From Patescibacteria group bacterium (GTDB lineage: Bacteria > Patescibacteriota > JABMPQ01 > JAQVVF01): 64,000 nucleotides of DNA. The notes under the pieces were generated by a model. It made no database searches and had not been told where the DNA came from. It saw nothing but the letters and a program-made list of their open reading frames with translations. Shown here piece after piece: positions 1-29,863 of the stretch; position 1 is the stretch's first letter; every line of letters starts with the position of its first letter. The translations under genes were made by a program, and so were the position numbers. Location: the NCBI GenBank assembly GCA_041662665.1, contig JBAZSC010000001.1, forward strand, positions 513,511 to 577,510, given 5' to 3'.

Positions 1-264
1 CTTTTACTTCATTTTCTTTTACTATTTTTCGTAATGTAAAAAAGTAATCAACAGAGCTCAAGCCAAACATTCTAAGAGAGCTATTATAGCTTTTTCGGAT
101 AATTTTAAAGCCTTGTTTTTTATCAAAATCGGACGCATTAGAATTAATTGGTGCCCAAACTACGACCTTATCAGAAGGCAATCTTTTGCAAATGTTATAA
201 AGATAATTTTGAATTCCACCTCTTTCTGGAGGAAAGAAATAGGTGAGAAATAATGATTTTTTCA
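1..264 (-). CDS. Glycosyltransferase family 4, N-terminal part (partial, runs off the window start)
   Basis: Reverse-strand ORF with start codon at 262-264. N-terminus MKKSLFLTYFFPPERGGIQNY... is the typical GT4 N-domain motif (FPPxxGG). Missing from the ORF track because there is no stop inside the window. Confidence 0.5.
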
Positions 265-423
265 TGAAATTTATGAATTGAATATTGAATATTTAATATT
301 GGCGTCGAGAGTCGGATAATATTCAATATTTAATATTCAGTAACTTTATTCTACCAAATAATCAAAAATCACACAAATATTGCTATTATATTGGCTTAAA
401 CAAGGGAAAGTGATAAAATCCCA

Positions 424-452
424 TTGACAAGATTTTTAGATTGTGCTAATCT
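424..452 (+). promoter_or_regulatory. sigma70-like promoter: TTGACA, 17-nt spacer, TAATCT
   Basis: TTGACA at 424-429, 17-nt spacer, TAATCT at 447-452. AT-rich host-like promoter reading into the GC-rich CDS; RBS GAGGAGG precedes the ATG at 531. Confidence 0.5.
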
Positions 453-530
453 ACTAAGTTACAATCCTCAGGTTCTGGAGAGAAAGGCAAGAACACTCAC
501 AACGAGAGAGAAAACGAGGAGGCAAGGGAA

Positions 531-1598
531 ATGAAGCGCACCAACAACATGCTCAAGATCGTGGCGGCGGGTTTCGTGATGTTCATGATGATGTTCAACT
601 TCAACCCCTTCTACAACTACTTCTACGACGAGGACGAGGGTGTCGCGTACGCGCAGGGCGAGCAGAGCGAGAAGGTGGAGTGGAAGATGTTGGACGCTGG
701 GTTCCAGGGTCAGAACGTGGCCTGGAAGAGCGAGTGGTCCTCCATGGTCATGGATGCGAAGTCGATGGTTGATATGAATCCGCTGAGTTGTGTAGAGGTG
801 AAGGGTTTCGAGGACGTGATTGGCTACGGCCAGTCCAAGCAGGAGCGCCTGGAGATCCGGGTCGCGGGTGGCGAAGAGCCCCTGCGGCAGGATCGGGCGC
901 GCAAGCGGATGATCTACGTGATGAGCAAGATTCGTGAGACTGGGCTGGAAGGTGCACAGGTCAAGGAAGGAATCCCCGTCATCAACGCCCCCAAGGGGCA
1001 GCGTGGCGCGGTGATCACCCTGATCAAGGATTGCATTCCCAAGCCGCCTGTTGCCTGCTGGGATACGAACCAGAACAGCCAGTGTGACTACGAGGAAGAC
1101 GTCAACAAGGACAACAAGTGTGATGTCATCGACTGCAGGGGCGACGATGGATCGAACGGTCGGAACGGCAAGATGGACATCGACTACGACTTCATCGGCC
1201 AGTACATGGTGAGCTTCGAGCGACCTGACTTCTACGGCTTCGAGCTTCGCGTCAACTTCCCGGTCAGCGACATGCTGATGCTGGGACTGGGCGCGGAAGC
1301 AGGGAAGTCGGACGGTGTGGCGGCGGCGGGATTCGAGCTGGCTGGAGAGTACGATCTGAACCGCTACTTCAAGCCTCGTCTCTCCCTGGTCGGTCGGGCG
1401 TTCGAGCTCGACAATCATCTCTACTTCGGTAGGGGTGAGATCGGCGGAGGGCTGGGGTTCGTCGGCGAATTCGCGGAGTTCGACCACCTCTCCCTGATCT
1501 ACGAGCTCCGAGGAGAATGGAAGGGAGAACTGGCGACGGGCAGGCGGGAATGGAAGGACGTGAAGTCCGGGGTCTTCGACCTCGGCCTCCGGTTCTAG
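531..1598 (+). CDS. Secreted beta-rich protein encoded in GC-rich DNA; homolog of CDS 3410..4663
   Basis: N-terminal hydrophobic signal/TM segment. Strong GC3 codon bias. C-terminal alternating hydrophobic strands ending in ...GLRF (aromatic C-terminus, OMP-like). Blocks align with 3410..4663 (EKVEWKMLDAGF/EKIVQKWDLVDAAL; PLSCVEVKGFEDV/PTSCLDIAGIDDV; KGQRGAVITLIKDC/KGIRGVRITLVKGC; YDLNRYFKPRL/YDLVYLKPRI). Confidence 0.6.
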   Translation: MKRTNNMLKIVAAGFVMFMMMFNFNPFYNYFYDEDEGVAYAQGEQSEKVEWKMLDAGFQGQNVAWKSEWSSMVMDAKSMVDMNPLSCVEVKGFEDVIGYGQSKQERLEIRVAGGEEPLRQDRARKRMIYVMSKIRETGLEGAQVKEGIPVINAPKGQRGAVITLIKDCIPKPPVACWDTNQNSQCDYEEDVNKDNKCDVIDCRGDDGSNGRNGKMDIDYDFIGQYMVSFERPDFYGFELRVNFPVSDMLMLGLGAEAGKSDGVAAAGFELAGEYDLNRYFKPRLSLVGRAFELDNHLYFGRGEIGGGLGFVGEFAEFDHLSLIYELRGEWKGELATGRREWKDVKSGVFDLGLRF

Positions 1599-1692
1599 TT
1601 CGAGAAGCTCCGGGCGCCCGACAAGACAACCGGCTGACAAGAAGTCGGGCGCCCGGTTCCGGTGGCAAGAACGGTTCGAGAGGAGGTGTGCG

Positions 1693-2331
1693 ATGAACGC
1701 GTTCGCGAAGTTCCTGTTCTGCCTGCTGATCGGTCTGTGCCTGTCCATCAACTGGAGCTGCGCGCTCCGCGAGGACGCCCAGCCGCCGGAAGACGGTGGC
1801 GAGGGCGAGGGAGAAGGCGAGGGCGAGGGTGAGGGCGAAGGTGAAGGGGAAGGTGAGGGTGAAGGCGAAGGAGAAGGCTGCGAGGGCGAAGGTGAGGGCG
1901 AGGGCGTGGAGTGCCAGGACGGTGAGCTCCGCCCGTGCAACTGCGACAGCGGCGACGTCGGCTACCAGACCTGCAAGGGAAGCTGGGGCGAGTGCGTCTG
2001 CGACTGTGGCGGCGACTGCGAAGGTGAGGGCGAGGGCGGCGAGGGGGAGGGTGAAGGTGAGAGCTGCTCGGTGTGGATCCAGGATGGGATGCTGTGTGGT
2101 GACATCGCTGGTCTGACTTCGTGGACGTTCGGCTGCATGCCTCCGGGTGTGGAGTCGGTCTGCGAGCTGAAGACCTTCGGTGGAACCTGCACGATGATCC
2201 CGACTGGTGTCGACTCCGCGTGGCCCCGTTCGATCAACGGTGTCTGGCTGACAGTCGTGGGCTGCATGGCTCGCGACGGTCTCCAGATCACCAGCGATCC
2301 GAGCGGCGGCCACTACCTGACCCTGCCGTAA
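1693..2331 (+). CDS. Secreted acidic Cys-rich protein with (GE)n low-complexity repeat
   Basis: RBS GAGGAGG upstream and an N-terminal signal peptide. GGCGAG-type hexanucleotide repeat at about 1797-1875 encodes (GE)n. The Cys motif TCKGSWGECVC resembles the C..G..TC...GSWG.C modules of CDS 25243..28200. Confidence 0.5.
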   Translation: MNAFAKFLFCLLIGLCLSINWSCALREDAQPPEDGGEGEGEGEGEGEGEGEGEGEGEGEGEGCEGEGEGEGVECQDGELRPCNCDSGDVGYQTCKGSWGECVCDCGGDCEGEGEGGEGEGEGESCSVWIQDGMLCGDIAGLTSWTFGCMPPGVESVCELKTFGGTCTMIPTGVDSAWPRSINGVWLTVVGCMARDGLQITSDPSGGHYLTLP

Positions 2332-2423
2332 GATCTTCAATCCCGCCCGACAAACGCAAGTGCGTCGGGTGCGGCCTCTCTCAACACAACAACAAGCAAT
2401 TCCTGTACATTCTGTTCCTTTAA

Positions 2424-2451
2424 GAGTTCACTTCAGTGAGCTCTTTTTTTA
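2424..2451 (+). terminator. Intrinsic terminator
   Basis: GAGTTCAC-TTCA-GTGAGCTC hairpin followed by T7. Confidence 0.6.
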
Positions 2452-2452
2452 T

Positions 2453-2479
2453 CCGCCGAAGCCTGAAAGGCGAAGGCGG
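2453..2479. repeat. GC-rich REP-like hairpin element, copy A (CCGCCGAAGCC-loop-GGCGAAGGCGG)
   Basis: Same motif family recurs at 8243-8275, 20527-20562 (inside ugd) and 21570-21624. Confidence 0.5.
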
Positions 2480-2496
2480 ATTTTGTTCAAATTTTA

Positions 2497-2649
2497 GAAA
2501 CTCGGTTTTATGGGTAAAGAAAAATTAACGTATTTCTGGGATAGTTAATTTAAGTTAAGTAAAATGTTGCTTTGCACAAAAACCGAGTTTCGTAACGTCG
2601 TAATCAACACGCGAAACTCGGTTTTTTCGAAAACCGAGTTTCAAATCAG
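2497..2649. repeat. Left arm of 153-bp imperfect inverted repeat flanking the tRNA operon
   Basis: Reverse complement of 3079-3231. The ends match perfectly (GAAACTCGGTTTTATGGGTAAAGAAA and AAACTCGGTTTTTTCGAAAACCGAGTTTCAAATCAG) around a diverged middle. Holds four copies of the palindromic 12-mer GAAACTCGGTTT/AAACCGAGTTTC. Confidence 0.8.
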
Positions 2650-2760
2650 CTGTGATTTTACGTATTTATAAAATCACATAGAATTGCCCCAAAAGGCATA
2701 TTTTACTATAAAAGCAATATCATACCAGCTCTATATCAATCTCACGCTAGGCCAAAAACC

Positions 2761-2788
2761 TTGACAAATTTAGCCATTGTAGTATACT
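2761..2788 (+). promoter_or_regulatory. sigma70-like promoter of the tRNA operon: TTGACA, 16-nt spacer, TATACT
   Basis: Near-consensus boxes about 38 nt upstream of tRNA-Lys. Confidence 0.6.
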
Positions 2789-2825
2789 TATAAGTTAAAA
2801 ATCCAGCCACCTGTACTTTCGGTAA

Positions 2826-2901
2826 GCGCCCATAGCTCAGCTGGTAGAGCTGCGGACTTTTAATCCGTCGGTCGAGGGTTCGAATCCCTCTGGGCGTACC
2901 A
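2826..2901 (+). tRNA. tRNA-Lys (anticodon UUU), CCA encoded
   Basis: Manual cloverleaf: acceptor GCGCCCA/TGGGCGT, D-stem GCTC/GAGC, anticodon stem GCGGA/TCCGT with loop CTTTTAA, T-arm GAGGG-TTCGAAT-CCCTC, 3' ACCA. Confidence 0.9.
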
Positions 2902-2918
2902 CGTCAGTCGTTCCTTCA

Positions 2919-3007
2919 GCCCGGATGGCGAAAAGGCAGCCGCGCTGGGCTTAAAACCCGGTGGTCCTGAACCAACCGTGCGGGTTCGAATCCCGCTCCG
3001 GGCACCA
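2919..3007 (+). tRNA. tRNA-Leu (anticodon UAA), type II long variable arm, CCA encoded
   Basis: Acceptor GCCCGGA/TCCGGGC, anticodon stem CTGGG/CCCGG with loop CTTAAAA, long variable arm, T-arm GCGGG-TTCGAAT-CCCGC, discriminator A, CCA. Confidence 0.85.
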
Positions 3008-3010
3008 TCA

Positions 3011-3037
3011 ACAGCATCTAATCGTGCTGTTTTTTTC
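3011..3037 (+). terminator. Intrinsic terminator of the tRNA operon
   Basis: ACAGCA-N8-TGCTGT hairpin followed by T7. Confidence 0.7.
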
Positions 3038-3078
3038 TTGTCCAAATTTTTTGTTCAGTTGCTAATCGAATATCAATA

Positions 3079-3231
3079 CTGATTTGAAACTCGGTTTTCG
3101 AAAAAACCGAGTTTCGCGTGTTGACTGTAACACTACGAAACTCGGTTTTTGTGCAAAGCAATATTTTATTTTATCTAAATAAACTATTTAAAAAATACAC
3201 TAATCTTTCTTTACCCATAAAACCGAGTTTC
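3079..3231. repeat. Right arm of 153-bp inverted repeat flanking the tRNA operon
   Basis: Reverse complement of 2497-2649; contains the same palindromic 12-mers. Confidence 0.8.
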
Positions 3232-3287
3232 TATTCGAGCGATTTGTGGCCTTAAGGCATTCGTGAGATTAGTAATGTAAAAAGAGT

Positions 3288-3316
3288 TTGACATAAATAC
3301 AAAATAGTAGTATTCT
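3288..3316 (+). promoter_or_regulatory. sigma70-like promoter: TTGACA, 17-nt spacer, TATTCT
   Basis: Upstream of CDS 3410; RBS AGGGAGGAAAAAGGG precedes the ATG. Confidence 0.5.
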
Positions 3317-3409
3317 CTAATATCCTGTTTAAAGCAAGCAACTTTTATTTATCAATGGAAAAAACTTCGAAGACAGAAACCAGGAGAGCAAAAAGGGAGG
3401 AAAAAGGGA

Positions 3410-4663
3410 ATGAGCAAGTTCAGACGTGCTTTTATTATTGCAGGCATTCTTTTGTTTTCGCAAACAACATATGCTGCAAATACTTGTCCAAATTCTCAAG
3501 TTTCAGCTTGGACTGAAAAAGGATCAGTTTGTGTTACCGCAAATTTGACTGGATCCGTTCAGATTTTTGCGCCAGAGAATTTCTTGATCTATATCAACAA
3601 AGTCAAGGTTTCTGGAATTCAGTACAATCGTGGAAAAGCATATTTCAAGGTTTATTTGATGCCAGGCAAATACGATATTTATGTTGGCACCAACTCAAAC
3701 AATTACAGGCACGAGACAATTCAGATTCATGCCTCAAAGACTGAATCAGTAACTTTCGCATCGCCAAAGTTGATGTACAATGCTCCGAATGTTTCATATC
3801 CAGAAATCAATCCAGAGAAGATTGTGCAGAAATGGGATTTGGTTGATGCTGCTTTGAAGGGAATGGATTGTGTTTATAAGGAATCATGGAAAAAAACTCT
3901 GCAAGAGGCAGCAATTGCTTTGTCAAAGGAAGAGCCAACATCCTGTTTGGATATTGCTGGAATCGATGATGTCAACGATTTTGTCGACTTGGCAACGCCA
4001 GAAGTCAGAGCAGCAGGTAGTCAAGATGCATTTCATACCATCAGAGCGCAAGGTAGAGCAAGCTTGATCATGTATCGTTTTGAAATGGATTTCAATGTTC
4101 CGCCAAAGCGTTTGCGCGAAGGCAAGATTGTGATTAGAGGTGAAAAGGGAATTCGAGGAGTCAGGATTACGCTCGTCAAAGGATGTTTGTCTCAAGCTGT
4201 CAATTCAAATCCTGTTGTAAATGTTCCTGATTCAGTAATGGATGTTTGGAGAGCAGGAGATGATGTTGCTAGGAAAAGGAAGCATTGGGAAGCAATCTAT
4301 GGCGCAAGACTTGTTTTTGGCGCTGGATATAGCACTTACCTTGATAATGTCTTGCAGACTCATCAGATTGAATTCCCAACTGACTTTAATTCAATTCTAG
4401 TAATTCCAGGAATGCGTCTTGGAACATCAGACTATGACAATTTCTATCCTTCTGCGATGTTTTCACTTGGCTATGACCTTGTATATCTCAAGCCAAGGAT
4501 TGGTGGAATTGTTACTGGTCATATCTCAGAAAGAGAAATTGAACGAAGCCTGTTTGCTGGAATTGTGTTTCCTCTGCCTGTCGAAAATTTGACCTTGGGT
4601 TCGCAATATGAGTATGGCAATTTTGGCCAAAACGGTTTTCTTTCCATTGGATTCGATCTTTAA
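3410..4663 (+). CDS. Secreted protein, AT-rich homolog of the GC-rich CDS 531..1598
   Basis: Signal peptide MSKFRRAFIIAGILLFSQTTYA. Strong SD. Several collinear conserved blocks shared with 531..1598. Confidence 0.6.
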   Translation: MSKFRRAFIIAGILLFSQTTYAANTCPNSQVSAWTEKGSVCVTANLTGSVQIFAPENFLIYINKVKVSGIQYNRGKAYFKVYLMPGKYDIYVGTNSNNYRHETIQIHASKTESVTFASPKLMYNAPNVSYPEINPEKIVQKWDLVDAALKGMDCVYKESWKKTLQEAAIALSKEEPTSCLDIAGIDDVNDFVDLATPEVRAAGSQDAFHTIRAQGRASLIMYRFEMDFNVPPKRLREGKIVIRGEKGIRGVRITLVKGCLSQAVNSNPVVNVPDSVMDVWRAGDDVARKRKHWEAIYGARLVFGAGYSTYLDNVLQTHQIEFPTDFNSILVIPGMRLGTSDYDNFYPSAMFSLGYDLVYLKPRIGGIVTGHISEREIERSLFAGIVFPLPVENLTLGSQYEYGNFGQNGFLSIGFDL

Positions 4664-4690: not shown

Positions 4691-4832
4691 TGCTTACAAA
4701 TCTCACAAATGCCTTCTGGCCACAAATTAACACCAATAATTTAGAGAAACTTTTTTTTATTCAAAAAATATGTTACACTAAAAAAAAGTCAATTTCTTAA
4801 TTTCCGAATTTCTTAATTTCTAAAATTATTAA

Positions 4833-8541: not shown

Positions 8542-8619
8542 TATACGTCGATAAATAGACATCTAAAATAACCAAAAAACTGAATTATATGCATTTCATG
8601 AGGGAGATTTATCCGTTAA

Positions 8620-8647
8620 TTCGCATATTCGTAGATTAGCATAAATT
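8620..8647 (+). promoter_or_regulatory. Conserved promoter/operator element, copy 1: TTCGCA, 16-nt spacer, TAAATT; spacer contains GTAGATTAGC
   Basis: Shared with 11157-11225 and 20104-20201; immediately upstream of the ATG at 8669. Confidence 0.5.
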
Positions 8648-8668
8648 CGTATATTTGTATTATATATT

Positions 8669-9952: not shown

Positions 9953-10067
9953 TATTACACTAAATTTTAAAAATAAGAATAATGAAAAATAATCTAGCCC
10001 TGTTGATAAATATGTTTTATACTTTAATAAAGCGAAAATTGCTTCATTGCTAAATTATTAAATTGCT

Positions 10068-10096
10068 GTAGCGACAGGGCAGTGCCCTGTCGCTAC
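10068..10096. promoter_or_regulatory. 29-bp perfect palindrome GTAGCGACAGGGCA-G-TGCCCTGTCGCTAC, 18 nt upstream of the rmlC-like start
   Basis: Identical element (central base complemented) at 17818-17846. Confidence 0.6.
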
Positions 10097-10113
10097 GAAA
10101 TAAATAAAATTTT

Positions 10114-10593
10114 ATGATTCAAGGTGTCAAAATCAAACAGTTAATAATTCGTAAAGACAAACCAGATCTAGATCAGAAAAAAGTTAAACCAGGACATTTG
10201 CTAGAAATTTTAAGATCTGATGACAAATTATTAACAAAATTCGGACAAACAATTTTTACTGTTGCTTATCCTGGTACAATCAAAGCTTTTCATTGGCACA
10301 AAAAACAAGACGATCTTTGGTTTTTCGCGACTGGCAAGGCAACTATTGTATTGTATGATACTCGCAAAAAATCAAAAACTTTTGGCGAGACTCAAGTAAT
10401 TGAATGCAACACTGAAACAGATCCAAAATTAGTATTAATTCCAATCGGTGTTGCTCATGGCTACAAAGCTCAAGGTAAAAAACCAGTTATGCTTTTTTAT
10501 CATACAACAAAACCATATAATGCTAAAAATCCAGATGAGCAAAGACTTCCATACAATGATCCAAAAATCGGATTCAATTGGAATAAAATATAA
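10114..10593 (+). CDS. rmlC: dTDP-4-dehydrorhamnose 3,5-epimerase-like cupin
   Basis: Cupin with KAFHWHK (compare RGLHFQ) and C-terminal NDPKIGFNW (compare NDPxLxIxW). Located with rmlB, rmlD and rmlA. Confidence 0.6.
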   Translation: MIQGVKIKQLIIRKDKPDLDQKKVKPGHLLEILRSDDKLLTKFGQTIFTVAYPGTIKAFHWHKKQDDLWFFATGKATIVLYDTRKKSKTFGETQVIECNTETDPKLVLIPIGVAHGYKAQGKKPVMLFYHTTKPYNAKNPDEQRLPYNDPKIGFNWNKI

Positions 10594-10690: not shown

Positions 10691-11155
10691 ATGATATCGA
10701 TAGATCAAAATCTAATTTCACAAACCTTAGAACAGGCAAAGGATAATCCTCGTCATCGACAAATTTTTCGTTTTCACAAATTAAAAGAACCAGTTCAGAG
10801 AATGCTCAATGCTTTATTGCCAGACAGCTATGCTAGACCGCATTACCATTCTGACAAGCCAGAAGTATTTATAATTTTAAAAGGCAAATTAGCAATTATA
10901 AAATTTAATAAGCAAGGAAAAATAATTCAGCAAGAAATAATTAAAAGTTCAGGTCCAAATTTTGGCGTTGAAATAAAACCTAAAGAATGGCATAGTATTG
11001 TTGCTTTAATTCCATCTGTTGTATACGAAATTAAAAAAGGACCATATATTAAAAAGACTGACAAAGTTTTTGCCAAATGGGCGCCTGAAGAAAACACTGA
11101 TGAAGGACAAAAATATTTAAAAAAACTTAAAAATATAATACGAATATACAAATAA
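10691..11155 (+). CDS. WbuC-family cupin fold metalloprotein
   Basis: About 150 aa cupin with the YARPHYH motif; typical of WbuC proteins in O-antigen clusters. Confidence 0.55.
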   Translation: MISIDQNLISQTLEQAKDNPRHRQIFRFHKLKEPVQRMLNALLPDSYARPHYHSDKPEVFIILKGKLAIIKFNKQGKIIQQEIIKSSGPNFGVEIKPKEWHSIVALIPSVVYEIKKGPYIKKTDKVFAKWAPEENTDEGQKYLKKLKNIIRIYK

Positions 11156-11156
11156 T

Positions 11157-11225
11157 GCTAATCTACAAAAATACGAATTCGCATATTCGTTGATTAGCAT
11201 AAATTTATAGATTCGTATCACACTA
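11157..11225 (+). promoter_or_regulatory. Conserved promoter/operator element, copy 2 (GCTAATCTAC...ACGAAT/ATTCGT...GATTAGC nested inverted repeats; TTCGCA, 16-nt spacer, TAAATT; ...ATTCGTATCACACTA-ATG)
   Basis: Aligns with copies at 8620-8668 and 20104-20201. Confidence 0.55.
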
Positions 11226-11719: not shown

Positions 11720-12736
11720 ATGAAAATTTTAGTCACAGGAGGTCTAGGTTTTATAGGCGCAAACTTTATTCGCTACATGTTATCAAAATATCCAGACTAT
11801 CAAATTGTCAATTTAGACAAAGTTACTTATGCTGGAAATTTTGAAAATTTAAAAGGCATTGATAAAGATCCTCGCTACCAATTTTTAAAAGGCGACATTG
11901 CTGATTCTAAATTAGTTAATAGTTTAATTTCAGTTCAAAAGCCGGATGCTATCATTAATTTTGCAGCTGAAACACATGTTGATCGATCAATCATGAATCC
12001 AGGCGATTTTATCAATACTGATGTTTTTGGCACACATATTTTACTTAATGCAGTTAAAGATCATAATATAAAACGCTATATCCAAATTTCAACTGATGAA
12101 GTTTATGGTGATTTTGATAATGGCGGATTTGCAAAAGAAAATTCACCACTTAGACCTTCATCTCCATATTCTGCATCAAAAGCAGGAGGAGATCTTCAAG
12201 TTTTAGCATTCAGACGAACTTACAATTTACCAGTTATGATTACAAGATGCACAAATAATTATGGACCATATCAATATCCAGAAAAAATTATTCCACTTTT
12301 TATTACAAATTTATTAGAAGGTAAAAAAGTTCCAGTCTATGGTGATGGCCAACAAATTCGTGATTGGTTGCATGTTGATGATCATTGTTCTGCAATTGAT
12401 TTGGTTTTACATAAAGGCAGAGATGGCGAGATTTATAATATCGGCGCTAACCAAAATCCAGAAATTCCAAATTTAGATTTAACAAAAAGAATTGTTTTGG
12501 TATGCAACAAAGATGAAAAATCAATTGAATATGTCAAAGATCGTGCTGGCCATGATCGTCGTTATGCTGTTGATGTTACAAAAATCAAAACAGAATTAGG
12601 CTGGCAACCAAAATATGATTTTGATTCTGGAATTGCACAAACTATTTCTTGGTACCAAAATAATTTAGACTGGTGGAAAAAAATCAAGACAGGAGAGTAT
12701 TTAAATTATTACAAACAGCAATATGTTCAAAGATAA
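11720..12736 (+). CDS. rmlB: dTDP-glucose 4,6-dehydratase
   Basis: GGLGFIGANF Rossmann motif, TDEVYG and YSASKAGGD motifs; 338 aa. Confidence 0.85.
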   Translation: MKILVTGGLGFIGANFIRYMLSKYPDYQIVNLDKVTYAGNFENLKGIDKDPRYQFLKGDIADSKLVNSLISVQKPDAIINFAAETHVDRSIMNPGDFINTDVFGTHILLNAVKDHNIKRYIQISTDEVYGDFDNGGFAKENSPLRPSSPYSASKAGGDLQVLAFRRTYNLPVMITRCTNNYGPYQYPEKIIPLFITNLLEGKKVPVYGDGQQIRDWLHVDDHCSAIDLVLHKGRDGEIYNIGANQNPEIPNLDLTKRIVLVCNKDEKSIEYVKDRAGHDRRYAVDVTKIKTELGWQPKYDFDSGIAQTISWYQNNLDWWKKIKTGEYLNYYKQQYVQR

Positions 12737-17224: not shown

Positions 17225-17812
17225 ATGATTAAAGAAAAAGACTTTAAAATTACAATGAATCAGATTTGGATATTAGCAAAGCCTTATTTAGAAATGGGGA
17301 CAATGAAAAATTTTATTATCCATTCAAAAGGAGTTTTGTTAGCTATGACAATGTTGTTGAAAAAAGAAAAAGGTGACAAAGAAATTTTATTGCCTGCAGC
17401 TATTTTACATGATGTTGGTTTCTCTAAAGTTTCAAAAGAATTGCAAAAAAGTAATGATAAGGCTGTAAAGACAAAAGTGTTAAGACAGCATTTAGAATTT
17501 GCGCCAGAAATTATAAAGGAAATTTTAAATAAAGTCGGTTATAATAAAAATGATATTGATGAAGTTATTCAAATTGTTATAGCTCATAAATTTCAAGATC
17601 CAAAAGAATTAGATAAACAATTATTAATTGACGCAGATACATTATCCGATGTTTTTAAAGAACAATTTTATTCTGATGCAAAAGCCTACAATAAAACTCC
17701 TCAGGAATTTTATAACGTTAGAAAAGATAACAAATTTTATACAAAAACAGCAAAAAACATTTTTTATCAAGAATTAAAAAATAGAAAAGAAGAAATTTTT
17801 ATAAAAAAATAA
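17225..17812 (+). CDS. HD-domain phosphohydrolase
   Basis: H...HD motif (AAILHDVGF) and a downstream H...D. Confidence 0.55.
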   Translation: MIKEKDFKITMNQIWILAKPYLEMGTMKNFIIHSKGVLLAMTMLLKKEKGDKEILLPAAILHDVGFSKVSKELQKSNDKAVKTKVLRQHLEFAPEIIKEILNKVGYNKNDIDEVIQIVIAHKFQDPKELDKQLLIDADTLSDVFKEQFYSDAKAYNKTPQEFYNVRKDNKFYTKTAKNIFYQELKNRKEEIFIKK

Positions 17813-17817
17813 TTCAC

Positions 17818-17846
17818 GTAGCGACAGGGCACTGCCCTGTCGCTAC
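17818..17846. promoter_or_regulatory. Second copy of the 29-bp perfect palindrome (central base C), 9 nt upstream of the epimerase start
   Basis: GTAGCGACAGGGCA-C-TGCCCTGTCGCTAC; the reverse complement of the copy at 10068-10096. Confidence 0.6.
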
Positions 17847-17855
17847 CAAAACATT

Positions 17856-18785
17856 ATGAAAATATTAGTCACAGGCGGTGCAGGCTTCATTGGCTCGCAC
17901 ATTGTCGATAAATTAATAGCAGAAAATAATGAAGTTGTTGTTATTGATAATTTATCAACTGGCAAAAAAGAAAATTTAAACAACAAAGCAAAATTTTATC
18001 AAGCTGATATCAAAAATTTTGAAGATGTAGAAAAAGTATTTGAGCAAGAAAAACCAGAATATATTTGTCACCAAGCAGCTCATGCCTCAGTTTCAGAATC
18101 AGTCAAAGATCCAATTTATGATGCTGAAAATAATATTTTAGGATCAATAAATATTATAAAATTAGCAATCAAATATAATATTAAAAAAATAGTTTTCGCT
18201 TCAACAGGTGGCGCAATGTATGGCGATGCTGAAATTATTCCAACGCCTGAAAAATCAGAAACAAAGCCGGTTTCTCCATATGCTGTTACAAAGCTTGCAG
18301 TTGAAAAATATTTATATTGCTTCAATTTTTTAAATAAGTTAAACTATACTATTCTACGCTATGCAAATGTTTATGGCCCAAAACAAGATCCATTTGGTGA
18401 GGCTGGAGTAGTTGCAATTTTTAGCCAAAAAATAGTTAATAATGAACAGCCAATAATCAACGGCGATGGCAAATACACTAGAGATTATGTTTATGTTACA
18501 GACATCGCAAATGCAAATTTATTGGCATTGAAAAGTGAAAAATCGCAAAATATTTACAATGTAGGAACTGGAATAGAGACAGATGTTAATACAATTTTCC
18601 AGAATTTATCTAAAATTTCTGGAAAAAATATTCCTGAAAAACATGGTGAAGCAAGAAAGGGTGATCATAGAAAAGGTGCAATCGATTCAACAAAAATTAA
18701 GCAAGAATTAAATTGGCAACCAACAGTTAAATTAGAAGATGGTTTGAAAGAAACATATAAATGGTTTTCGAACTTAAAATCCTAA
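17856..18785 (+). CDS. NAD-dependent sugar-nucleotide epimerase (UDP-glucose 4-epimerase-like)
   Basis: [20 protein letters not shown]...; YAVTKLAVEKY (YxxxK). Confidence 0.7.
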   Translation: MKILVTGGAGFIGSHIVDKLIAENNEVVVIDNLSTGKKENLNNKAKFYQADIKNFEDVEKVFEQEKPEYICHQAAHASVSESVKDPIYDAENNILGSINIIKLAIKYNIKKIVFASTGGAMYGDAEIIPTPEKSETKPVSPYAVTKLAVEKYLYCFNFLNKLNYTILRYANVYGPKQDPFGEAGVVAIFSQKIVNNEQPIINGDGKYTRDYVYVTDIANANLLALKSEKSQNIYNVGTGIETDVNTIFQNLSKISGKNIPEKHGEARKGDHRKGAIDSTKIKQELNWQPTVKLEDGLKETYKWFSNLKS

Positions 18786-20104: not shown

Positions 20105-20201
20105 TACAAATCTACGAATTTTATGCTAATCTACGAAAATACGAATGCGCCGATTCGCATATTTGTAGATTAGCATATATTCGTAAATTCGTATCACACT
20201 T
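20104..20201 (+). promoter_or_regulatory. Conserved promoter/operator element, copy 3 (GCTAATCTAC-N...-GTAGATTAGC inverted repeat; TTCGCA, 16-nt spacer, TATATT; ...ATTCGTATCACACTT-ATG)
   Basis: Longest copy. Contains a GCGCCG insertion and a duplicated ATTCGTA segment relative to copy 2. Confidence 0.55.
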
Positions 20202-23830: not shown

Positions 23831-23978
23831 ATATTAAAAGTATACCATATATTTTACATCAATAATATAAAATTGAAAACTTGACAAGTGGATAATCTTT
23901 TGTTACGCTATTTTGAAGCAAATCTGTGCCGAAGTACCGAAAAACAACCCGTTTCCGAGAGAAGAGGAGGAGAAAAAG

Positions 23979-25004
23979 ATGAGAATCCTGAACTTTCTAG
24001 TATTTTGTGGAGTTGCTTGTTTTTCATCGACTGCTTATACTCAAGAAGAATCCGAAAGCAAGTCGGATATTGCTATTGTTTTGATGTCTGAAGAAACTCA
24101 TGATCAGAGAATGGTAGATGATGCTGTTGAAATGATTATTGCCAAATTTTCAAATGAAAAGATCCAGTCTTCTGGCAAAGAAATGTTTGGCAGTGATTCT
24201 GATGAACAGATCAAAACTTGTCTGAAAGACAATTCTTGTGTACAAAAAAAAGCTGTGGAAAAACATGTTTCCCGAGTATTTTATGGAACTTTGGCTAGTG
24301 ACAGAAGAGTTGAAAATGTTGTAGTTATCACTCCTGGCAAGAGATACAATAAGATCAAGGATGTTGTTCCAGTAGAGAAGAAAACTCTGACTATTAGACT
24401 GACTATGTTTGATGCAGTCAACAACAAGGTTGAAATGTCATGGGTGAGCAAAAAGATTGAACCAAGCAAACTCGCTTCTGAAGTTCTGACTGACATTGCT
24501 TCCGAAGCTGTTCGTATCTACAAGGCAAGTCCACTGACCTGGCCAGAAACAAAAAAGCCAAATACTGAAGTCAAGGTTGAAATTGTAAATGTCGATCCTG
24601 TTTCAGAACCAGCCAAGCCAGTTGTCGAAGAAGTGCAGGAAAAGCCAATCGTTCTGCTGGATCCTGAAGTGAGCAATTTGGATTGGCATTTCTGGACGAG
24701 CGTTGGCGGTGCAAGTGTCGGTGTAATCTTGATTTCTGCAGGCAGTTACTACGGTCTCAAGTCAAGCAATGCTAGCGACAATTATGATGCAACCAACATT
24801 CAGACCCAGGCAGAAAGCTTTAAAGATGAAGCAGAATCTGCTGGATCAACTGCTAACATTATGTTTGCTTCTGGTGGAGTTCTGATTGCAGGCAGTGCAG
24901 CTCTTTATGTTCTTGATCAATTCGGTATTCTCGATGCCAATGAATCACCTCAGGCAGTTTTCGTGCCAAAAGACGGCATGTTCTGTTTGAACCTTTCGTT
25001 CTAA
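23979..25004 (+). CDS. Secreted/membrane-anchored hypothetical protein
   Basis: Strong SD (GAGGAGGAG), signal peptide MRILNFLVFCGVACFSS, C-terminal hydrophobic segments. The ATG at 23979 is preferred over the ORF-track start at 23913. Confidence 0.55.
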   Translation: MRILNFLVFCGVACFSSTAYTQEESESKSDIAIVLMSEETHDQRMVDDAVEMIIAKFSNEKIQSSGKEMFGSDSDEQIKTCLKDNSCVQKKAVEKHVSRVFYGTLASDRRVENVVVITPGKRYNKIKDVVPVEKKTLTIRLTMFDAVNNKVEMSWVSKKIEPSKLASEVLTDIASEAVRIYKASPLTWPETKKPNTEVKVEIVNVDPVSEPAKPVVEEVQEKPIVLLDPEVSNLDWHFWTSVGGASVGVILISAGSYYGLKSSNASDNYDATNIQTQAESFKDEAESAGSTANIMFASGGVLIAGSAALYVLDQFGILDANESPQAVFVPKDGMFCLNLSF

Positions 25005-25242: not shown

Positions 25243-28200
25243 ATGAGACAAACAGCATTAATGTTTTTGTTGTCCTTGTATTTTGTTGGTTGTATTGCAG
25301 AGTTGGCACCTGCTGATGAAAAGAATGGAAAGAATCTTTGTGATGAAAATGCACGTTGCTCTGATGGCTATACTTGTGTTTGCAACATGAATAATCATTC
25401 CAAGATTTGCGTGAAGAATCCGAATGCTGAAATGATTTTGGCAAACAAGTCTACTGTCTGTGAAGAGACTATGTCTGACACCGGACCCGATGCTGAAGCT
25501 GACGCCGAAGTTGGAACAAGCGCTGATATCGACGCTGATTCTAACGCTGAAGCGGACGCTGAAGTCGGAACGCCTGATGAAGATTCGACGACTGATACAG
25601 ATGCCAACGCTTCTACCGATGTCGAGCCTGATGAAGGCAACGATGTTGGTAATGACGCTCAGCCTGATGTCTCGCCTGACAATGGAACCGATCTCGGTTC
25701 TGATGTCGGTGAAGATGTTCCTTGTATTCCCGCAACCGAAATCTGTGATGGCGTTGACAATGACTGCGATAGCTATACTGACGAAGATTTCAACAATCTG
25801 AATCAGTCCTGTTCTGTCGGACTCGGTTTGTGTGAGAACGAAGGCGTTTACGTTTGTAGTACCGATAGAAGCACAACTGTTTGTAATGTTGCAGCTTTTC
25901 AAGCTTATCCTGAAGAATGTGATGACATGGACAACGACTGCGATGGCCAAACTGACGAAGATTTGGTTGGCTGTTGCGACGTTGACGCTGTTCAGGAATG
26001 CGGATCTGATGTTGGGGAATGTGTGAAGGGCGAGATGACTTGTCAGGAAGATGGCAGTTGGGGCGACTGTGAAAACGCTGTTGGTCCGACTGTTGATCTT
26101 TGCGACAGTCTTGACAATGACTGTGATGGCGCAACTGACGAGGATTTTCTGAATCGAGGGATGGAATGCCAGATTGGTCAAGGCAACTGTCTTTCTAATG
26201 GCAATTATGCTTGTACTGAAGATATGTTTGGAACTTTCTGTGCAGCTCTGATCATCCAGCCGTCCAATGAGGCTTGCGATCAGCAGGATAATGACTGCGA
26301 TGGCGCAACTGATGAGGACTTGGTTGGATGTTGCGAGCCTAACGATCAGGTCGAATGCGGATCCGCTGTCGGCGAATGCCGTAAGGGTCACAAGACTTGT
26401 TCGATTGATGGTGTGTGGAGCGAATGTCTTGAAGAAGTGAAGCCAATGGCTGAACTTTGTGATGGCAAGGATAACAACTGCGACGGTCAGACAGATGAAA
26501 CCTTTGCTAATCTGAACAGCGAATGTCAGATTGGGCGTGGTGAATGTCTGTCGATTGGTCGCATGACTTGCGGTGTTGATCAGCAGTCAACGTCTTGTAA
26601 TGCAGATATCCTCACCGGCAACGATGAGATCTGTGATAACAAAGATAATGACTGCGATGGCGATGTTGACGAAAATCTGCTGCGTGAATGTGGCAGTGAC
26701 GTCGGTGAATGTGAGATCGGTATCCAATCTTGTTTTGCTGGTGGCTGGCTTGCCTGCGAAGGTGAGATTCAGTCGAGCGACGAGATTTGTGATAACCTTG
26801 ATAACAATTGCGACGGTAATACAGATGAAGGTTTCAACATCAACGATCAATGCTTTGAAGGTCTTGGCGAATGCCAGGCTGAAGGCGTGATCGTTTGTGT
26901 TGATGAGAATATGAGTGCTTGCAATGCAGTTGTCGGTCAGCAGTCGGAAGAGACATGCGATGGCTTGGACAACGATTGCGATGGCAATACAGATGAAGAG
27001 TTGGAAAATTGTTGTATTCCTGATACCATTTCCGAATGCGGTATTGACACTGGCGAATGTGTGAAGGGAACTTCCACTTGCCAGGCAGACCGTACTTGGG
27101 GTTGGTGTTTGGATGCAACTGGACCATCGGATGAAATCTGCGATGGATTGGATAACAACTGCGATGGCGAAACAGACGAAGGTTTGACTGGTTGTTGCTC
27201 ACCTTCCGTTTCTCGCAACTGCGGATCTGATGTGGGCGAATGCTCTCATGGGACGCAGATTTGCTGGGAAAGCCGTGAGTGGGGCGAATGCCAGAATCAG
27301 ACTTTGCCTGCAAATGAAATCTGCGATGGACTTGACAATGACTGCGATGGCCAGACAGACAATGGATTCGACCTCATGGCTGAAGCCAATAACTGCGGCC
27401 AATGCAATTATGTTTGTGGCAGTCAGGGGACAGTGAGTACTACTTGCGAAGCAGGTGAGTGCGTTCTGACGTGCAGCCGCTTCCGAGTTGATTTGAACAC
27501 TGATCCGACTGACGGCTGTGAATGTGAAGTCACCAATTGCGGTGTGGAAATCTGCGATCAGGTGGACAACGATTGTGATGGTGCAATTGACGAAGACTGT
27601 GATTCTCTCGTCATGTACCTGAGCTTCGATGGACACATGAATGATGGATCTACCAATGCCAACAACGCTCTCAACCATGGCGCCACTTACACTGCTGATG
27701 CAGTTTGTGGCCAGGCAGCATCGTTCGACGGAGTCGACGATTATGCCGAAGTGGCTGATAGCGTGAGCATGGATTCGATTGTGAATGAGTTTACGATTTG
27801 CGTTTCAGCAAATGTGACTGATTACGAAAGAGGTGATGTTGTATTCTCAAAGTTTAGGCTGCAACCAGCACTTGGAATCGAATGGAACGATGTAACTATG
27901 GAAAACAACTGGACATTCTTTTTAAACCGAGTAAAGCTTGCTCAGGGAAGAACTGTTAATGTGAATCAGTGGATTACTTTCTGTGGGAAATTCAAGCAAG
28001 GAGTTTTTACTGCATACATTGATGGCGAACAAATTTGGCAAGGTAATGCTCAAAACCCAGTTGGCGGTATTACCTATATTGGGTCTAACGATATGCCACC
28101 AGCCAAGAACAGCCACACAAAGATTGATGAGACTACATTTTATAACGTTGCACTTTCCGATGAGGAAATCCAGCACTACTTTGAAATCATGAAACGCTAG
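25243..28200 (+). CDS. Large secreted (lipo)protein with 11 MopE-like/TSP3-like Cys-rich Ca-binding repeats (CDGxDNDCDGxTDE) and a C-terminal LamG/concanavalin-A-like domain
   Basis: Strong SD, signal peptide with ...YFVGC. N-terminal acidic DAEADAEVGT repeats. Eleven copies of C-D-x-x-D-N-D-C-D-G-x-x-D-E alternate with two types of Cys-knot-like spacers. C-terminal LSFDG...DGSTNANNALNHGAT...ASFDGVDDYAEV is the LamG_3 signature. GC about 45-50%. Confidence 0.7.
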   Translation: MRQTALMFLLSLYFVGCIAELAPADEKNGKNLCDENARCSDGYTCVCNMNNHSKICVKNPNAEMILANKSTVCEETMSDTGPDAEADAEVGTSADIDADSNAEADAEVGTPDEDSTTDTDANASTDVEPDEGNDVGNDAQPDVSPDNGTDLGSDVGEDVPCIPATEICDGVDNDCDSYTDEDFNNLNQSCSVGLGLCENEGVYVCSTDRSTTVCNVAAFQAYPEECDDMDNDCDGQTDEDLVGCCDVDAVQECGSDVGECVKGEMTCQEDGSWGDCENAVGPTVDLCDSLDNDCDGATDEDFLNRGMECQIGQGNCLSNGNYACTEDMFGTFCAALIIQPSNEACDQQDNDCDGATDEDLVGCCEPNDQVECGSAVGECRKGHKTCSIDGVWSECLEEVKPMAELCDGKDNNCDGQTDETFANLNSECQIGRGECLSIGRMTCGVDQQSTSCNADILTGNDEICDNKDNDCDGDVDENLLRECGSDVGECEIGIQSCFAGGWLACEGEIQSSDEICDNLDNNCDGNTDEGFNINDQCFEGLGECQAEGVIVCVDENMSACNAVVGQQSEETCDGLDNDCDGNTDEELENCCIPDTISECGIDTGECVKGTSTCQADRTWGWCLDATGPSDEICDGLDNNCDGETDEGLTGCCSPSVSRNCGSDVGECSHGTQICWESREWGECQNQTLPANEICDGLDNDCDGQTDNGFDLMAEANNCGQCNYVCGSQGTVSTTCEAGECVLTCSRFRVDLNTDPTDGCECEVTNCGVEICDQVDNDCDGAIDEDCDSLVMYLSFDGHMNDGSTNANNALNHGATYTADAVCGQAASFDGVDDYAEVADSVSMDSIVNEFTICVSANVTDYERGDVVFSKFRLQPALGIEWNDVTMENNWTFFLNRVKLAQGRTVNVNQWITFCGKFKQGVFTAYIDGEQIWQGNAQNPVGGITYIGSNDMPPAKNSHTKIDETTFYNVALSDEEIQHYFEIMKR

Positions 28201-29200: not shown

Positions 29201-29785
29201 TTATGATTTAAGCTCAATAGTTGGAAAAGCTTTTATTTTACTAATCTTTTCATACTCGATATCACTTAGAATTCGATGACCTTTTAAAGTATCAACTAAA
29301 ACAATTATTTTTTCATCTAACTTTCTAATAATCAAAATAACATCACCCTTTGCAGAATCAATTTTATTGATCAAAGATTCTTCAACATGATCAATTTTAT
29401 TTGTTAATTCTTTTTTAATACCATCAACTTTAATATTTAATATTTCTAAATCTTCTTTTGTTGCGGTCTCTTCAAAACCTTTTGCAACCATTAATGCAAG
29501 TTCTGAAATTTTTTTATCGAATTTTTTATCAAGTCTTTTTTCTTGTTGATTAAAACCAATATCCATTTTTTTATCAAGTCTTTTTTCTTGTTGATTAAAA
29601 CCAATATCCATTTTTTTATCAAGTCTTTTTTCTTGTTCTTTAAAACCACTATCCATTTTTACGGATAATTTTTCAAACTTTGTAGATATCTTTTCAACCT
29701 TTGTAGATATCTTTTCAACTTTTGTGCCAAGCTTTTCAATCAATTTGGCCAAATCATTAATTGTAATTTCTTTTTTTATTTTCAT
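29201..29785 (-). CDS. Coiled-coil protein with perfect in-frame tandem DNA repeats (45 bp in 3 copies; 21 bp in 3 copies)
   Basis: Two perfect copies plus one variant of a 45-bp unit at about 29522-29655 encode FNQQEKRLDKKMDIG. A 21-bp unit at about 29668-29740 encodes KVEKIST. The internal Met (MKIKKE) is preferred as start. Confidence 0.5.
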   Translation of the reverse strand: MKIKKEITINDLAKLIEKLGTKVEKISTKVEKISTKFEKLSVKMDSGFKEQEKRLDKKMDIGFNQQEKRLDKKMDIGFNQQEKRLDKKFDKKISELALMVAKGFEETATKEDLEILNIKVDGIKKELTNKIDHVEESLINKIDSAKGDVILIIRKLDEKIIVLVDTLKGHRILSDIEYEKISKIKAFPTIELKS

Positions 29786-29863
29786 GAATTCAAAAATTTT
29801 ATCACCAAAATTATAACACATTTTTTCTAAGTCAACAAATATACTGTTGATAATAAATCAAAG

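Follow-up and report, generated by a model that had tools for sequence, protein, structure and literature searches.

The DNA stretch analysed here, 64,000 nucleotides (nt) long and referred to below as the window, comes from a metagenome-assembled genome of a member of the Patescibacteria (Candidate Phyla Radiation, CPR), where it lies on a contig of 645 kb (JBAZSC010000001.1, positions 513,511 to 577,510). The background of the window is AT-rich, with a GC content of 25–33% and a GC content at third codon positions (GC3) of 0.14–0.30 over ~50 genes. Inside this background, bases ~460–2450 reach 58–68% GC and hold two open reading frames (ORFs) on the plus strand, which we call genes A and B and, together, the cassette. 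We conclude that this cassette is very probably native to its genome, vertically inherited and actively maintained at its high GC content, and not a recent import. The genes concerned, including a paralog of A further downstream (gene C), are the following:

531..1598, plus strand: gene A (NCBI protein name WC663_02670), ORF of 355 amino acids (aa), 59.1% GC, GC3 0.82
1693..2331, plus strand: gene B, ORF of 212 aa, 65.9% GC, GC3 0.79
3410..4663, plus strand: gene C (WC663_02690), AT-type paralog of A, 417 aa, 40.3% GC, GC3 0.34, GC content at fourfold degenerate sites (GC4) 0.22–0.31

An earlier note, made from the letters of this DNA alone, had presented A and C as homologous secreted-protein genes of opposite base composition. 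Both ORFs are indeed found on the plus strand at these coordinates and with these GC contents, but a comparison of their synonymous sites bore out the contrast for one copy only. While A is GC-rich at these sites, C is merely near background, and its 40% GC is an effect of amino-acid composition. Because the synonymous sites of C are near background, the compositional anomaly consists of the A+B block alone and not of a symmetric pair. The codon usage of the cassette is the inverse of that of the flanking genes and resembles that of a bacterium of ~62–67% GC. The GC content at second codon positions of A (0.36–0.45) is the same as that of C (0.39), and in the first 30 codons of A, a signal region rich in F, Y, M and N, GC3 is 0.90–0.97. 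The coding strand of the cassette is G-rich, with a GC skew of 0.15–0.19 and a positive AT skew overall. For the remaining genes, metK among them, GC3 is ~0.19; ribosomal-protein genes are not present in the window. The neighbours of the cassette are envelope-polysaccharide genes, namely a GT4 gene on the minus strand upstream (GT4up), and Wzy_C followed by another GT4 gene downstream.

The GC-rich block is conserved and matches a predicted transcription unit

Among the loci used for comparison (L001–L014), the cassette was present in seven species-level Patescibacteria lineages, represented by the window, L001, L002–L005, L006, L008, L009=L011 and L010; L008 is a GTDB species representative with a contig of 210 kb, and L009=L011 lies on a contig of 654 kb. 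The A homologs of the seven lineages are 43–64% identical to one another. In every lineage the cassette occupies the same slot, in the order DUF5656, Wzz, GT4 on the minus strand, A, B, tRNA-Leu where present and, further along, Wzy_C and GT4, and an ortholog of B follows A in L001, L003, L008, L009 and L010. Throughout, the cassette has 58–69% GC inside flanks of 28–33% GC, and the GC3 of A and B is 0.72–0.86 in all lineages vs 0.23–0.31 in the flanking genes.

The GC-rich segment at ~460–2450 coincides with what is predicted to be a single two-gene transcription unit, the limits of which are its promoter and its terminator. The elements of this unit are listed below.

392..404, plus strand: candidate regulatory site, motif TGGCTTA..CAAG in an AT-rich context, invariant in the seven lineages and also present upstream of the ortholog in L012, a more distant Patescibacteria lineage
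424..452, plus strand: predicted consensus promoter, −35 TTGACA at 424–429, 17-nt spacer with TGTGC, −10 TAATCT at 447–452
460..530, plus strand: 5' leader of ~70 nt, purine-rich, 48% GC, with the Shine-Dalgarno (SD) sequence GAGGAGG at 516–522; the GC-rich block begins here
1610..1656, plus strand: intercistronic GC hairpin (CCGGGCGCCCGAC ... GTCGGGCGCCCGG), directly 3' of the stop codon of A, no U-tract
1795..2083, plus strand: (GAG-GGY)n tracts encoding the EG repeats of B, direct-repeat family D1, length-polymorphic, with a G-run motif of the G-quadruplex (G4) type at 2028
2342..2374, plus strand: hairpin of the 3' untranslated region (3'UTR) (CCCGCCCGAC-AAACGCAAGTGC-GTCGGGTGCGG), nearly invariant in six lineages
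2422..2450, plus strand: intrinsic terminator (AAGAGTTCAC-TTCA-GTGAGCTCTT followed by T7), stem and T-run conserved; the GC-rich block ends here

The TTGACA box is invariant and the −10 box conserved in the seven lineages and in L012, and the promoter itself lies within AT-rich DNA. In all lineages, the GC content is 0.20–0.27 upstream of the −35 box, rises to 0.44–0.55 within 30 nt past the −10 box and to 0.60–0.70 in the coding region, and drops to ~0.3 right after the T-run of the terminator. On the other side of the promoter, the 5' part of GT4up that lies next to the cassette has a GC3 of 0.18–0.28 and shows no gradient. The intercistronic hairpin (13–16 bp) is found in all seven lineages, and RNAalifold returned 16 conserved pairs, five of them with compensatory changes, at a consensus energy of −35 kcal/mol. 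The ~110-nt 3'UTR, which carries both stem-loops, is nearly invariant despite the saturated synonymous sites of the coding regions. At the AT-rich ortholog locus of L012 the two genes abut, and the intercistronic and 3'UTR elements are absent. A search of Rfam with bases 250–3450 returned the two tRNAs of the locus and nothing else.

The cassette is near a GC-rich equilibrium of its own

The cassette and its flanks have accumulated synonymous differences to a comparable extent. At fourfold sites the proportion of differences between lineages (p4) is 0.33–0.66 in A and B and 0.33–0.60 in Wzy_C, both near saturation, with a GC4 of 0.63–0.82 in the cassette vs 0.19–0.28 in the flanks. Synonymous divergence (dS, NG86) is 0.39–1.26 for the cassette and 0.42–1.24 for the flanks, and since the two are about equal, the block has co-diverged with its flanks. 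Under a two-state model at the equilibrium of the flanks, an imported block would by now have decayed to a GC3 of 0.33–0.50 at the deeper splits, and at 80% GC it would show changes from strong (S, G or C) to weak (W, A or T) bases in excess of the reverse, with S>W:W>S of 9–16:1. The synonymous changes that we observed, polarised with an outgroup by parsimony, which is biased at skewed composition, gave ratios of ~1–3:1 (for example 7:7, 12:12, 15:10 and 18:9). The cassette thus sits near its own GC-rich compositional equilibrium, against the AT-biased mutation of the genome.

The composition of the cassette is atypical in the manner of a genomic island (60% vs 28% GC, GC3 0.8 vs 0.2). Its boundaries are the conserved promoter and terminator, and neither an integrase nor an att duplication was found at them. 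An insertion sequence (IS) lies upstream in L003 and L004 only, where an IS-type transposase gene (rve_3 with a helix-turn-helix domain; L003 3–902, L004 3–896) stands in the place of GT4 just upstream of the cassette promoter.

Several points weigh against native maintenance. With the same polarisation the flanks show a mirror excess, W>S:S>W being ~2:1, a known bias of parsimony when composition is skewed. The pair formed by the window and L010 gave S>W:W>S of 19:2 and 24:8, which suggests net decay in those two lineages, and the lowest GC3 values are those of L010 and L006, so that maintenance is not fully uniform. As to origin, a GC-rich xenolog may have taken over the locus long ago and been maintained from then on.

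Protein divergence and exchange of segments between lineages

The ratio of nonsynonymous to synonymous divergence (dN/dS) is 0.25–0.35 for A and 0.24–0.51 for B, compared with 0.03–0.10 for the flanks and 0.18 for C, and the cassette proteins evolve 4–6 times faster than their neighbours. Identity along the cassette is uneven. Between L003 and L009, sliding windows gave ~60% over the leader and signal peptide and 93–95% over the OmpA-like domain of A and the C-terminal domain of B, while for the window and L010 identity starts at 80–87% at the 5' end, falls to ~50% over the OmpA-like domain and returns to ~80% over the barrel. In three cassette quartets the topology of the quartet-informative sites changed by segment (heterogeneity p=7e-14, 3e-4 and 3e-5), and no such heterogeneity was seen in the Wzy_C flank (p=0.07–0.42). 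The cassette is a mosaic, the segments of which have been exchanged between lineages by recombination. The topology of GT4up is likewise discordant, without raised GC3.

Silent copies of A or B were not found by tblastn or blastn in the 64-kb window and the two 21-kb loci of L008 and L009, the remaining ~580 kb being unsearched at the DNA level, and the protein database held no extra paralog proteins from the genome of the window. We found no template or variable repeats of the diversity-generating retroelement (DGR) type on the cassette in the 64-kb window, where no scan for reverse-transcriptase genes was made. In a DGR target adenine-specific differences would be expected; the coding strand of the cassette, with its positive AT skew, is not depleted of adenine relative to thymine overall.

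A predicted envelope protein family, probably native to the clade

We modelled A with AlphaFold2 (AF2) from an 8-sequence alignment, in which the domains reached a predicted local distance difference test score (pLDDT) of 70–87 and the linker was disordered. A signal sequence with an invariant AYA↓Q is followed by an OmpA-like domain (aa 48–165), a Cys/Asp-rich linker of the Ca type (172–214) and a barrel (218–355). In the model, residues 48–165 form an alpha/beta domain (pLDDT ~70–86), and residues 218–354 form eight long antiparallel strands (pLDDT 76–87). When compared with the Protein Data Bank (PDB) by Foldseek, the barrel matched NspA (1p4t, E=1e-5, target-normalised TM-score (TMt) 0.61), OmpW, OprF-N (4rlc), Ail, OmpX and OmpA (1qjp/1bxw), and the alpha/beta domain matched OprF-C (5u1h, TMt 0.62–0.64), AbOmpA (3td3), Pal (4g4w, TMt 0.72) and 1oap, with E-values of 2e-3 to 1e-2. 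All alleles of A, as well as A', a third paralog found in L008, terminate with ..G(V/L/I)RF after a stretch in which hydrophobic residues alternate, that is, in a C-terminal beta-signal with an aromatic end, whereas C ends in ..GFDL and is without one. As modelled, A would be a domain-permuted, OmpA/OprF-like secreted protein, with a peptidoglycan-binding-type domain, a Ca-type linker and an 8-stranded barrel ending in Phe. To date, the few CPR bacteria with a described envelope are monoderm, and information is scarce (PMC8871954).

Sequence profiles are less telling than the fold. No model of Pfam or NCBIfam reached its threshold on A, A', B or C, and a sequence search of the PDB with the family profile returned nothing. 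The wider family comprised 302 matches at E<1e-3, and among 51 of its members we found weak, sub-threshold matches to Pfam OmpA in 12 (best E=9e-4), to TSP_3 in two and to OMP_b-brl in one. Among these 51 members D95 and R126 do not vary, R122 and A123 hardly do, and their context, G-x-E-D ... R-A-x-x-R/V, appears to resemble the GHTD ... RRA..V of the diaminopimelate-binding Asp/Arg pair. The linker motif CWDxNxNG..DC also occurs in collagen- and dockerin-like repeat proteins.

B is a putative lipoprotein, as judged from a lipobox-like Cys. Its signal sequence ends in this Cys (..SC↓ALRE; ..GGC↓ALRE in the orthologs) and is followed by an acidic (Glu-Gly)n linker and a Cys-rich part, and its C-terminal domain of ~95 aa is conserved and ends in GGHYLxLP. 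A single-sequence AF2 model of B was unusable (pLDDT 47). The populations of L002 and L003 are otherwise 99.7–100% identical, but the length of the (GAG-GGY)n tract is changed by an indel of 42 nt. By regular expression, G4 motifs on the coding strand were found in four of six lineages (the window at 2028, L001, L003 and L009), and since they are absent from L008 and L010, the idea of a G-quadruplex function was dropped.

C carries a signal peptide, an extra N-terminal beta-rich domain of ~100 aa, an OmpA-like domain homologous to that of A and a divergent C-terminal beta region. The earlier note had aligned A and C over several collinear blocks, and their homology is significant in a pairwise BLASTP alignment (E=8e-15, 27% identity over 137 aa), with even lower E-values for other A alleles against C (1e-18 to 1e-25). 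The first three of its blocks fall within the aligned region (A residues 38–171, C residues 128–262), but the two C-terminal ones (YDLNRYFKPR.. / YDLVYLKPR.. and VFDLGLRF / FLSIGFDL) are left unaligned by BLASTP, and a profile-profile comparison of the C-terminal halves by hhalign gave a probability of 3.9% and a non-collinear match; a MAFFT alignment does set these blocks in register. Both proteins have a hydrophobic N-terminal signal sequence, and both genes a strong SD sequence (that of A listed above, and GGGAGG upstream of 3410), in agreement with that note.

The best match of A outside its own group was P0016 (112 bits), the product of its positional ortholog in L012. The gene of P0016 shares synteny and the promoter motif with A but has 45% GC and a GC3 of 0.36. 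The next-best matches were the AT-rich paralogs C and A', and homologs from GC-rich organisms came last (for example P0052, on a 204-kb contig of 61% GC). A similar picture emerged from the fractions of the residues G, A, R and P (GARP) and F, Y, M, I, N and K (FYMINK):

A: GARP 0.26–0.31, FYMINK 0.23–0.30
C: GARP 0.25, FYMINK 0.29–0.31
Homologs from GC-rich organisms: GARP 0.37–0.50, FYMINK 0.06–0.15

The amino-acid composition of A is therefore that of an AT-rich genome. No donor of the cassette was found among 15 billion proteins, no closer relative among 5.8 billion clusters or among 1.84 billion representatives, and no copy in collections of plasmids, phages and viruses. A search for related loci by means of alignments of A alone gave two from genomes, one from a metagenome and none from viruses. 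The best explanation is that A and C are old paralogs within one family, a 'permuted OmpA' envelope family native to this Patescibacteria clade.

Forces acting on the synonymous sites

The synonymous shift depends on the preceding bases of the codon. Against the flanks, the ln-odds shift is 4.0 in codons with two weak bases at positions 1 and 2 (WW-N), 2.65 in mixed ones and 1.5 in codons with two strong bases (SS-N), an order that is clear in six of the seven lineages and weak in L006. After weak bases TTC, TAC, AAC and ATC stand at 0.91–0.95, and after strong ones GGT is kept at 0.29, CGT at 0.21 and GCT at 0.16. Lys AAG and Gln CAG stand at 0.95, and A-ending codons are almost gone from the fourfold boxes. 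At fourfold sites T is ~2x as frequent as A in all seven lineages, compared with A = T in the background.

We tentatively favour selection at the level of the transcript as what would hold the cassette GC-rich, a reading drawn from sequence patterns, because the bias is strand-asymmetric and context-dependent, stops at the ends of the transcript and came with new stem-loops. Context, strand and transcript limits are not predicted by a per-site, strand-symmetric process, nor by an effect of base composition at the DNA level, and we therefore prefer this reading to GC-biased gene conversion (gBGC). The A-B unit, native and inherited vertically along with its AT-rich flanks, would have had its synonymous sites recoded to G/C and held there, with W>S and S>W changes reaching fixation in similar numbers even though GC stands at 80%. 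The force would be a fixation bias through selection on the transcript or its decoding, with mRNA stability or structure, the avoidance of A/U-rich sites and codon-anticodon strength as possible targets, and stabilising stem-loops would have been newly gained after each cistron along with the GC recoding. There are, however, considerations that count against transcript selection. We know of no precedent for selection-driven GC recoding of a whole operon in an AT-rich bacterium, and with a GC3 of ~0.19 elsewhere, metK included, selection would have to be operon-specific. The operon is recombinogenic and other secreted-protein genes have a GC3 of 0.34–0.43, and both observations are in line with biased gene conversion. 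In part, a codon-anticodon or mutational-context effect, and not RNA stability, could underlie the context dependence.

The main rival is gBGC, or selection for recombination-promoting DNA, at a recombining hot spot of surface proteins, where G/C-biased repair of heteroduplexes, acting again and again, would raise the GC content of synonymous sites; we regard it as rather unlikely to be the chief cause, although it and transcript selection are not mutually exclusive. The significant mosaicism of the cassette, set against the homogeneous Wzy_C flank, speaks for it, as do the mildly raised GC3 of the other secreted-protein genes in the window and the GC skew of the coding strand. The effect is concentrated at synonymous sites, as in recombining genes of other bacteria (PMC4450053), and the vls locus offers a precedent of a GC-rich, recombining locus kept across Lyme Borrelia (PMC11499132). 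However, a GC3 difference of ~+0.55 far exceeds what has been described for recombining bacterial genes, and neither the context dependence nor the twofold excess of T over A is predicted by a strand-symmetric repair bias. The edges of the block are sharp at the promoter and terminator, beyond which the 5' part of GT4up is topologically discordant yet not raised in GC3; no silent donor cassettes were present in the 64 kb plus two 21-kb regions; and paralog C evolves fast at background GC4. A local mutational bias tied to transcription (strand-asymmetric damage or repair, R-loop or G-run processes) in a very highly transcribed unit would account for the match between block and transcription unit, for the A vs T asymmetry at fourfold sites, for the G-rich coding strand and for the G-run motifs that some lineages have in their EG-repeat tracts. 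Transcription-associated mutagenesis is dominated by C-to-T deamination on the non-template strand and would lower GC content. Moreover, the dS of the cassette is not markedly above that of the flanks, the influence of codon positions 1 and 2 looks like codon or sequence selection, and G4 motifs are absent from two lineages, which makes a mutational cause improbable.

An origin of A-B by import from a GC-rich, probably diderm, donor to a site beside a resident paralog, with slow amelioration or repeated re-import since, is about as improbable. It draws on the GC-rich codon usage, on the existence of family members in GC-rich organisms such as that of P0052, on the typically diderm architecture of an outer-membrane barrel with terminal Phe, an OmpA-like domain and a lipoprotein, and on the tRNA genes adjoining the block and the IS upstream in one lineage; with a GC3 of 0.36 in the L012 ortholog, the ancestral state may not have been GC-rich. 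On the other hand, the slot, the AT-rich promoter and the 3'UTR are the same in seven lineages, the dS of the cassette about equals that of the flanks, its GC3 is undecayed with polarised substitutions near balance, and both its nearest relatives and its amino-acid composition are of the AT-genome type. The cluster, representative, plasmid, phage and viral searches yielded no closer GC-rich homolog, and even with a foreign origin a maintaining force would still be needed. The scenarios of the earlier note, all three of which invoked an imported xenologous or newly arrived high-GC copy, accordingly find no support in the shared slot, the lack of GC3 decay and the lack of a donor. That note had also held that the locus is hard to explain as a random chimera, and here it was right. 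A chimeric joining of a GC-rich contig into an AT-rich genome, suggested solely by the abrupt change in composition, is refuted and practically without probability. An independent assembly of the window organism from the Joint Genome Institute (JGI; L014) agrees with the window at 100% identity along 1,262 nt that span the AT-to-GC junction, the same junctions recur in other species and in 8+ independent assemblies from various samples and pipelines (NCBI, JGI, ENA, Logan), the conserved promoter and terminator span them, and an AT-rich paralog and an AT-rich ortholog exist.

Finally, we mention a speculative and very improbable reading, in which A and B, as envelope proteins of the diderm type with a BAM-style barrel, would serve not the envelope of the epibiont itself, which presumably lacks an outer membrane, but that of a diderm host rich in GC. 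The proteins would be inserted into the outer membrane of the host or even expressed by its machinery, and adaptation to this foreign setting would explain both the GC-rich 'dialect' of the codons and a transcript that is capped by hairpins and resists nucleases. A milder form, which shares with it the same very small probability, is that whole-operon recoding is an evolved, gene-specific switch of expression or stability undescribed in bacteria.

Surroundings of the cassette

Downstream of the cassette lies a tRNA module, followed by gene C.

2495..3233, plus strand: tRNA module bounded by inverted repeats (IR), arms 2495–2659 and 3069–3233, 165 nt, 86% identical
2826–2901: tRNA-Lys(UUU), and 2919–3007: tRNA-Leu(UAA), both inside the IR
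3288..3316, plus strand: promoter-like site of C, inferred, TTGACA 3288–3293, 17 nt, TATTCT 3311–3316, conserved in L007

A and C stand on either side of this module, as the earlier note had described, and it is the tRNAs and not the GC block that the arms enclose. Eight exact copies of the 13-nt motif AAAACCGAGTTTC are present vs 0.16 expected, all inside the arms and four per arm (at 2497, 2579, 2613, 2630, 3086, 3103, 3137 and 3219), in alternating orientation, so that two hairpins are possible per arm; these palindromes could act as an array of operators or as a bidirectional terminator, or could be an element resembling a miniature inverted-repeat transposable element. L001, L003 and L008 carry a comparable palindrome (GAAACTCGGTTTT..AAAACCGAG.GTTTC) after the terminator of the cassette. 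The tRNA-Leu gene is present alone in L003, L008 and L009, and L001 has no tRNA. In L009 (12380–12465), a second copy of a tRNA 3' end (GAATCCCGCTCCGGGCACCA) lies ~100 nt downstream of tRNA-Leu, after two GC-rich hairpins; it looks like a scar of integration or excision at tRNA-Leu, and it may be related to the presence or absence of A' and C among the lineages.

Orthologs of C were found in L007 (70% identity) and L008 (50%), and C is missing from L001 and L009. Three paralogs stand in tandem in L008 (A at 60% GC, the short A' at 35% and C at 42%), while L001 and L009 have A only. A' lies between tRNA-Leu and C (L008 12740–13549), encodes 269 aa at 35% GC and GC3 0.27, ends in ..IGIRF and has an ortholog, P0044, that is 41% identical to it. 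In the window, C is flanked by a 34-nt inverted repeat (88%; 3242–3275 and 4694–4727). We considered this repeat as a cassette boundary and rejected it, since neither L007 nor L008 has kept it around C and L009 has copies elsewhere (324–352, 12167–12191); a further copy lies in L008 (12634–12654). We take it for a small repeat that is dispersed.

Between the start of GT4 and the cassette promoter, an AT-rich palindrome (ATTGAATATTGAATATT ... AATATTCAATATTTAAT) surrounds a short GC core (GGCGTCGAGAGTCGG) at 265–339. The window, L001 and L008 share this palindrome, which is not conserved in L006, L009 or L010 and might serve as an operator or as part of a divergent promoter. Long antisense ORFs cover the GC-rich block on the minus strand (468–1940, 490 aa; 1369–2340, 323 aa). 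Such frames are to be expected opposite GC3-rich plus-strand coding, and these two, which lack homologs, were not counted as genes; the antisense ORF in L001 (4748–5527) was called as a gene by one gene caller. Intergenic repeats are found at 8597–8659, 11155–11217 and 20123–20193 and at 10061–10121 and 17811–17871. Their TGCTAATCT / GATTAGCA palindromes share the −10-like word of the cassette promoter, and their repeated GC-rich hairpin (GTAGCGACAGGGCAGTGCCCTGTCGCTAC) is probably a terminator.

Further downstream, a secreted protein of 985 aa (25243–28200, GC3 0.43) consists of ~11 Cys-rich repeats of the MopE type (period 58/61 aa) and a C-terminal Laminin_G_3 domain. Upstream of its gene lies an ORF of 363 aa (23913–25004, GC3 0.36), and these two are the sole other genes of the window with GC3 above background. 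The earlier note had linked B to the 985-aa protein by a shared Cys motif and so tied the island to this downstream gene set. We reject this link, given that the best BLASTP match between the two proteins had E=0.15 and that a hidden Markov model of the MopE-type repeat unit scored <=0.7 bits on all six B orthologs. A MopE-repeat protein also adjoins P0052, the homolog from a GC-rich organism (L013 14557–17026). Three tandem 45-nt repeats (91–96% identical; 29515–29660) lie inside a minus-strand ORF of 206 aa (29201..29821).

Comparison with known systems

Atypical GC content is a standard signal for calling horizontally transferred genes. With tRNA-adjacent genomic islands the cassette shares a sharp break in composition, atypical codons, secreted cargo, nearby tRNAs and inverted repeats, but it differs from them in its synteny and vertical co-divergence, the absence of amelioration and of a donor, and a protein composition of the native type. 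A 2-kb block that lies ~55 GC3 points off its genome and yet is native and vertical would thus be a clean counter-example to the rule that atypical composition means recent import. The literature that we searched held no report of such a hyper-GC operon in Patescibacteria.

In highly expressed genes, translational selection on codon usage follows the rule of intermediate codon-anticodon strength of Grosjean and Fiers. Like such genes, the cassette prefers C after weak bases at positions 1 and 2 and tolerates T after strong ones, whereas AAG and CAG at 0.95 and the near loss of A-ending fourfold codons are unusual for highly expressed genes of AT-rich bacteria. The locus is a natural experiment on what holds synonymous sites against a strong mutational bias.

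With the OmpA/OprF family, in which thrombospondin-type-3 Ca-binding linkers are known from some members, the predicted protein A has in common an 8-stranded barrel, an OmpA-like domain, a Cys/Asp-rich linker of the Ca type (TSP_3 in relatives) and a C-terminal Phe. It differs in that its order is reversed, with the peptidoglycan-binding domain first and the barrel last, and in that its host is a Patescibacterium, described members of which are monoderm (PMC8871954). Such a family of reversed order in Patescibacteria bears on the envelope of ultra-small epibionts and on their attachment to hosts.

Recombining bacterial genes have been reported to have a higher GC3, with the strongest effect at synonymous positions and including non-optimal GC-ending codons (Lassalle et al. 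2015, PMC4450053). The cassette likewise recombines and is GC3-rich, but the magnitude is an order beyond, only one unit is concerned and the effect is context- and strand-dependent. Transcript selection and biased gene conversion predict different outcomes at this locus, which can be tested.

The closest analogue that we can offer, by comparison of features, is the compositional anomaly of the vls locus of Borrelia burgdorferi sensu lato, where vlsE and promoterless silent cassettes provide antigenic variation. That locus has 49% GC vs 28.6% for the genome and a GC skew of 0.52 and is kept across Lyme Borrelia despite divergence (PMC11499132). The authors of that study took the property to be under strong selective pressure and linked it to segmental recombination (PMC11499132). 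There is no relation in sequence or fold to VlsE, and no array of silent cassettes in the 64 kb and two 21-kb loci. Cassette GC is higher than that of vls (60–62% vs 49%) and GC skew much lower (0.15–0.19 vs 0.52); unlike in vls, the anomaly is mainly synonymous and covers a whole two-gene transcription unit with its UTRs, and the mosaicism is seen between lineages. What the two have in common is a surface-protein locus that is GC-rich in an AT-rich genome, with a G-rich coding strand, conserved across species and mosaic.

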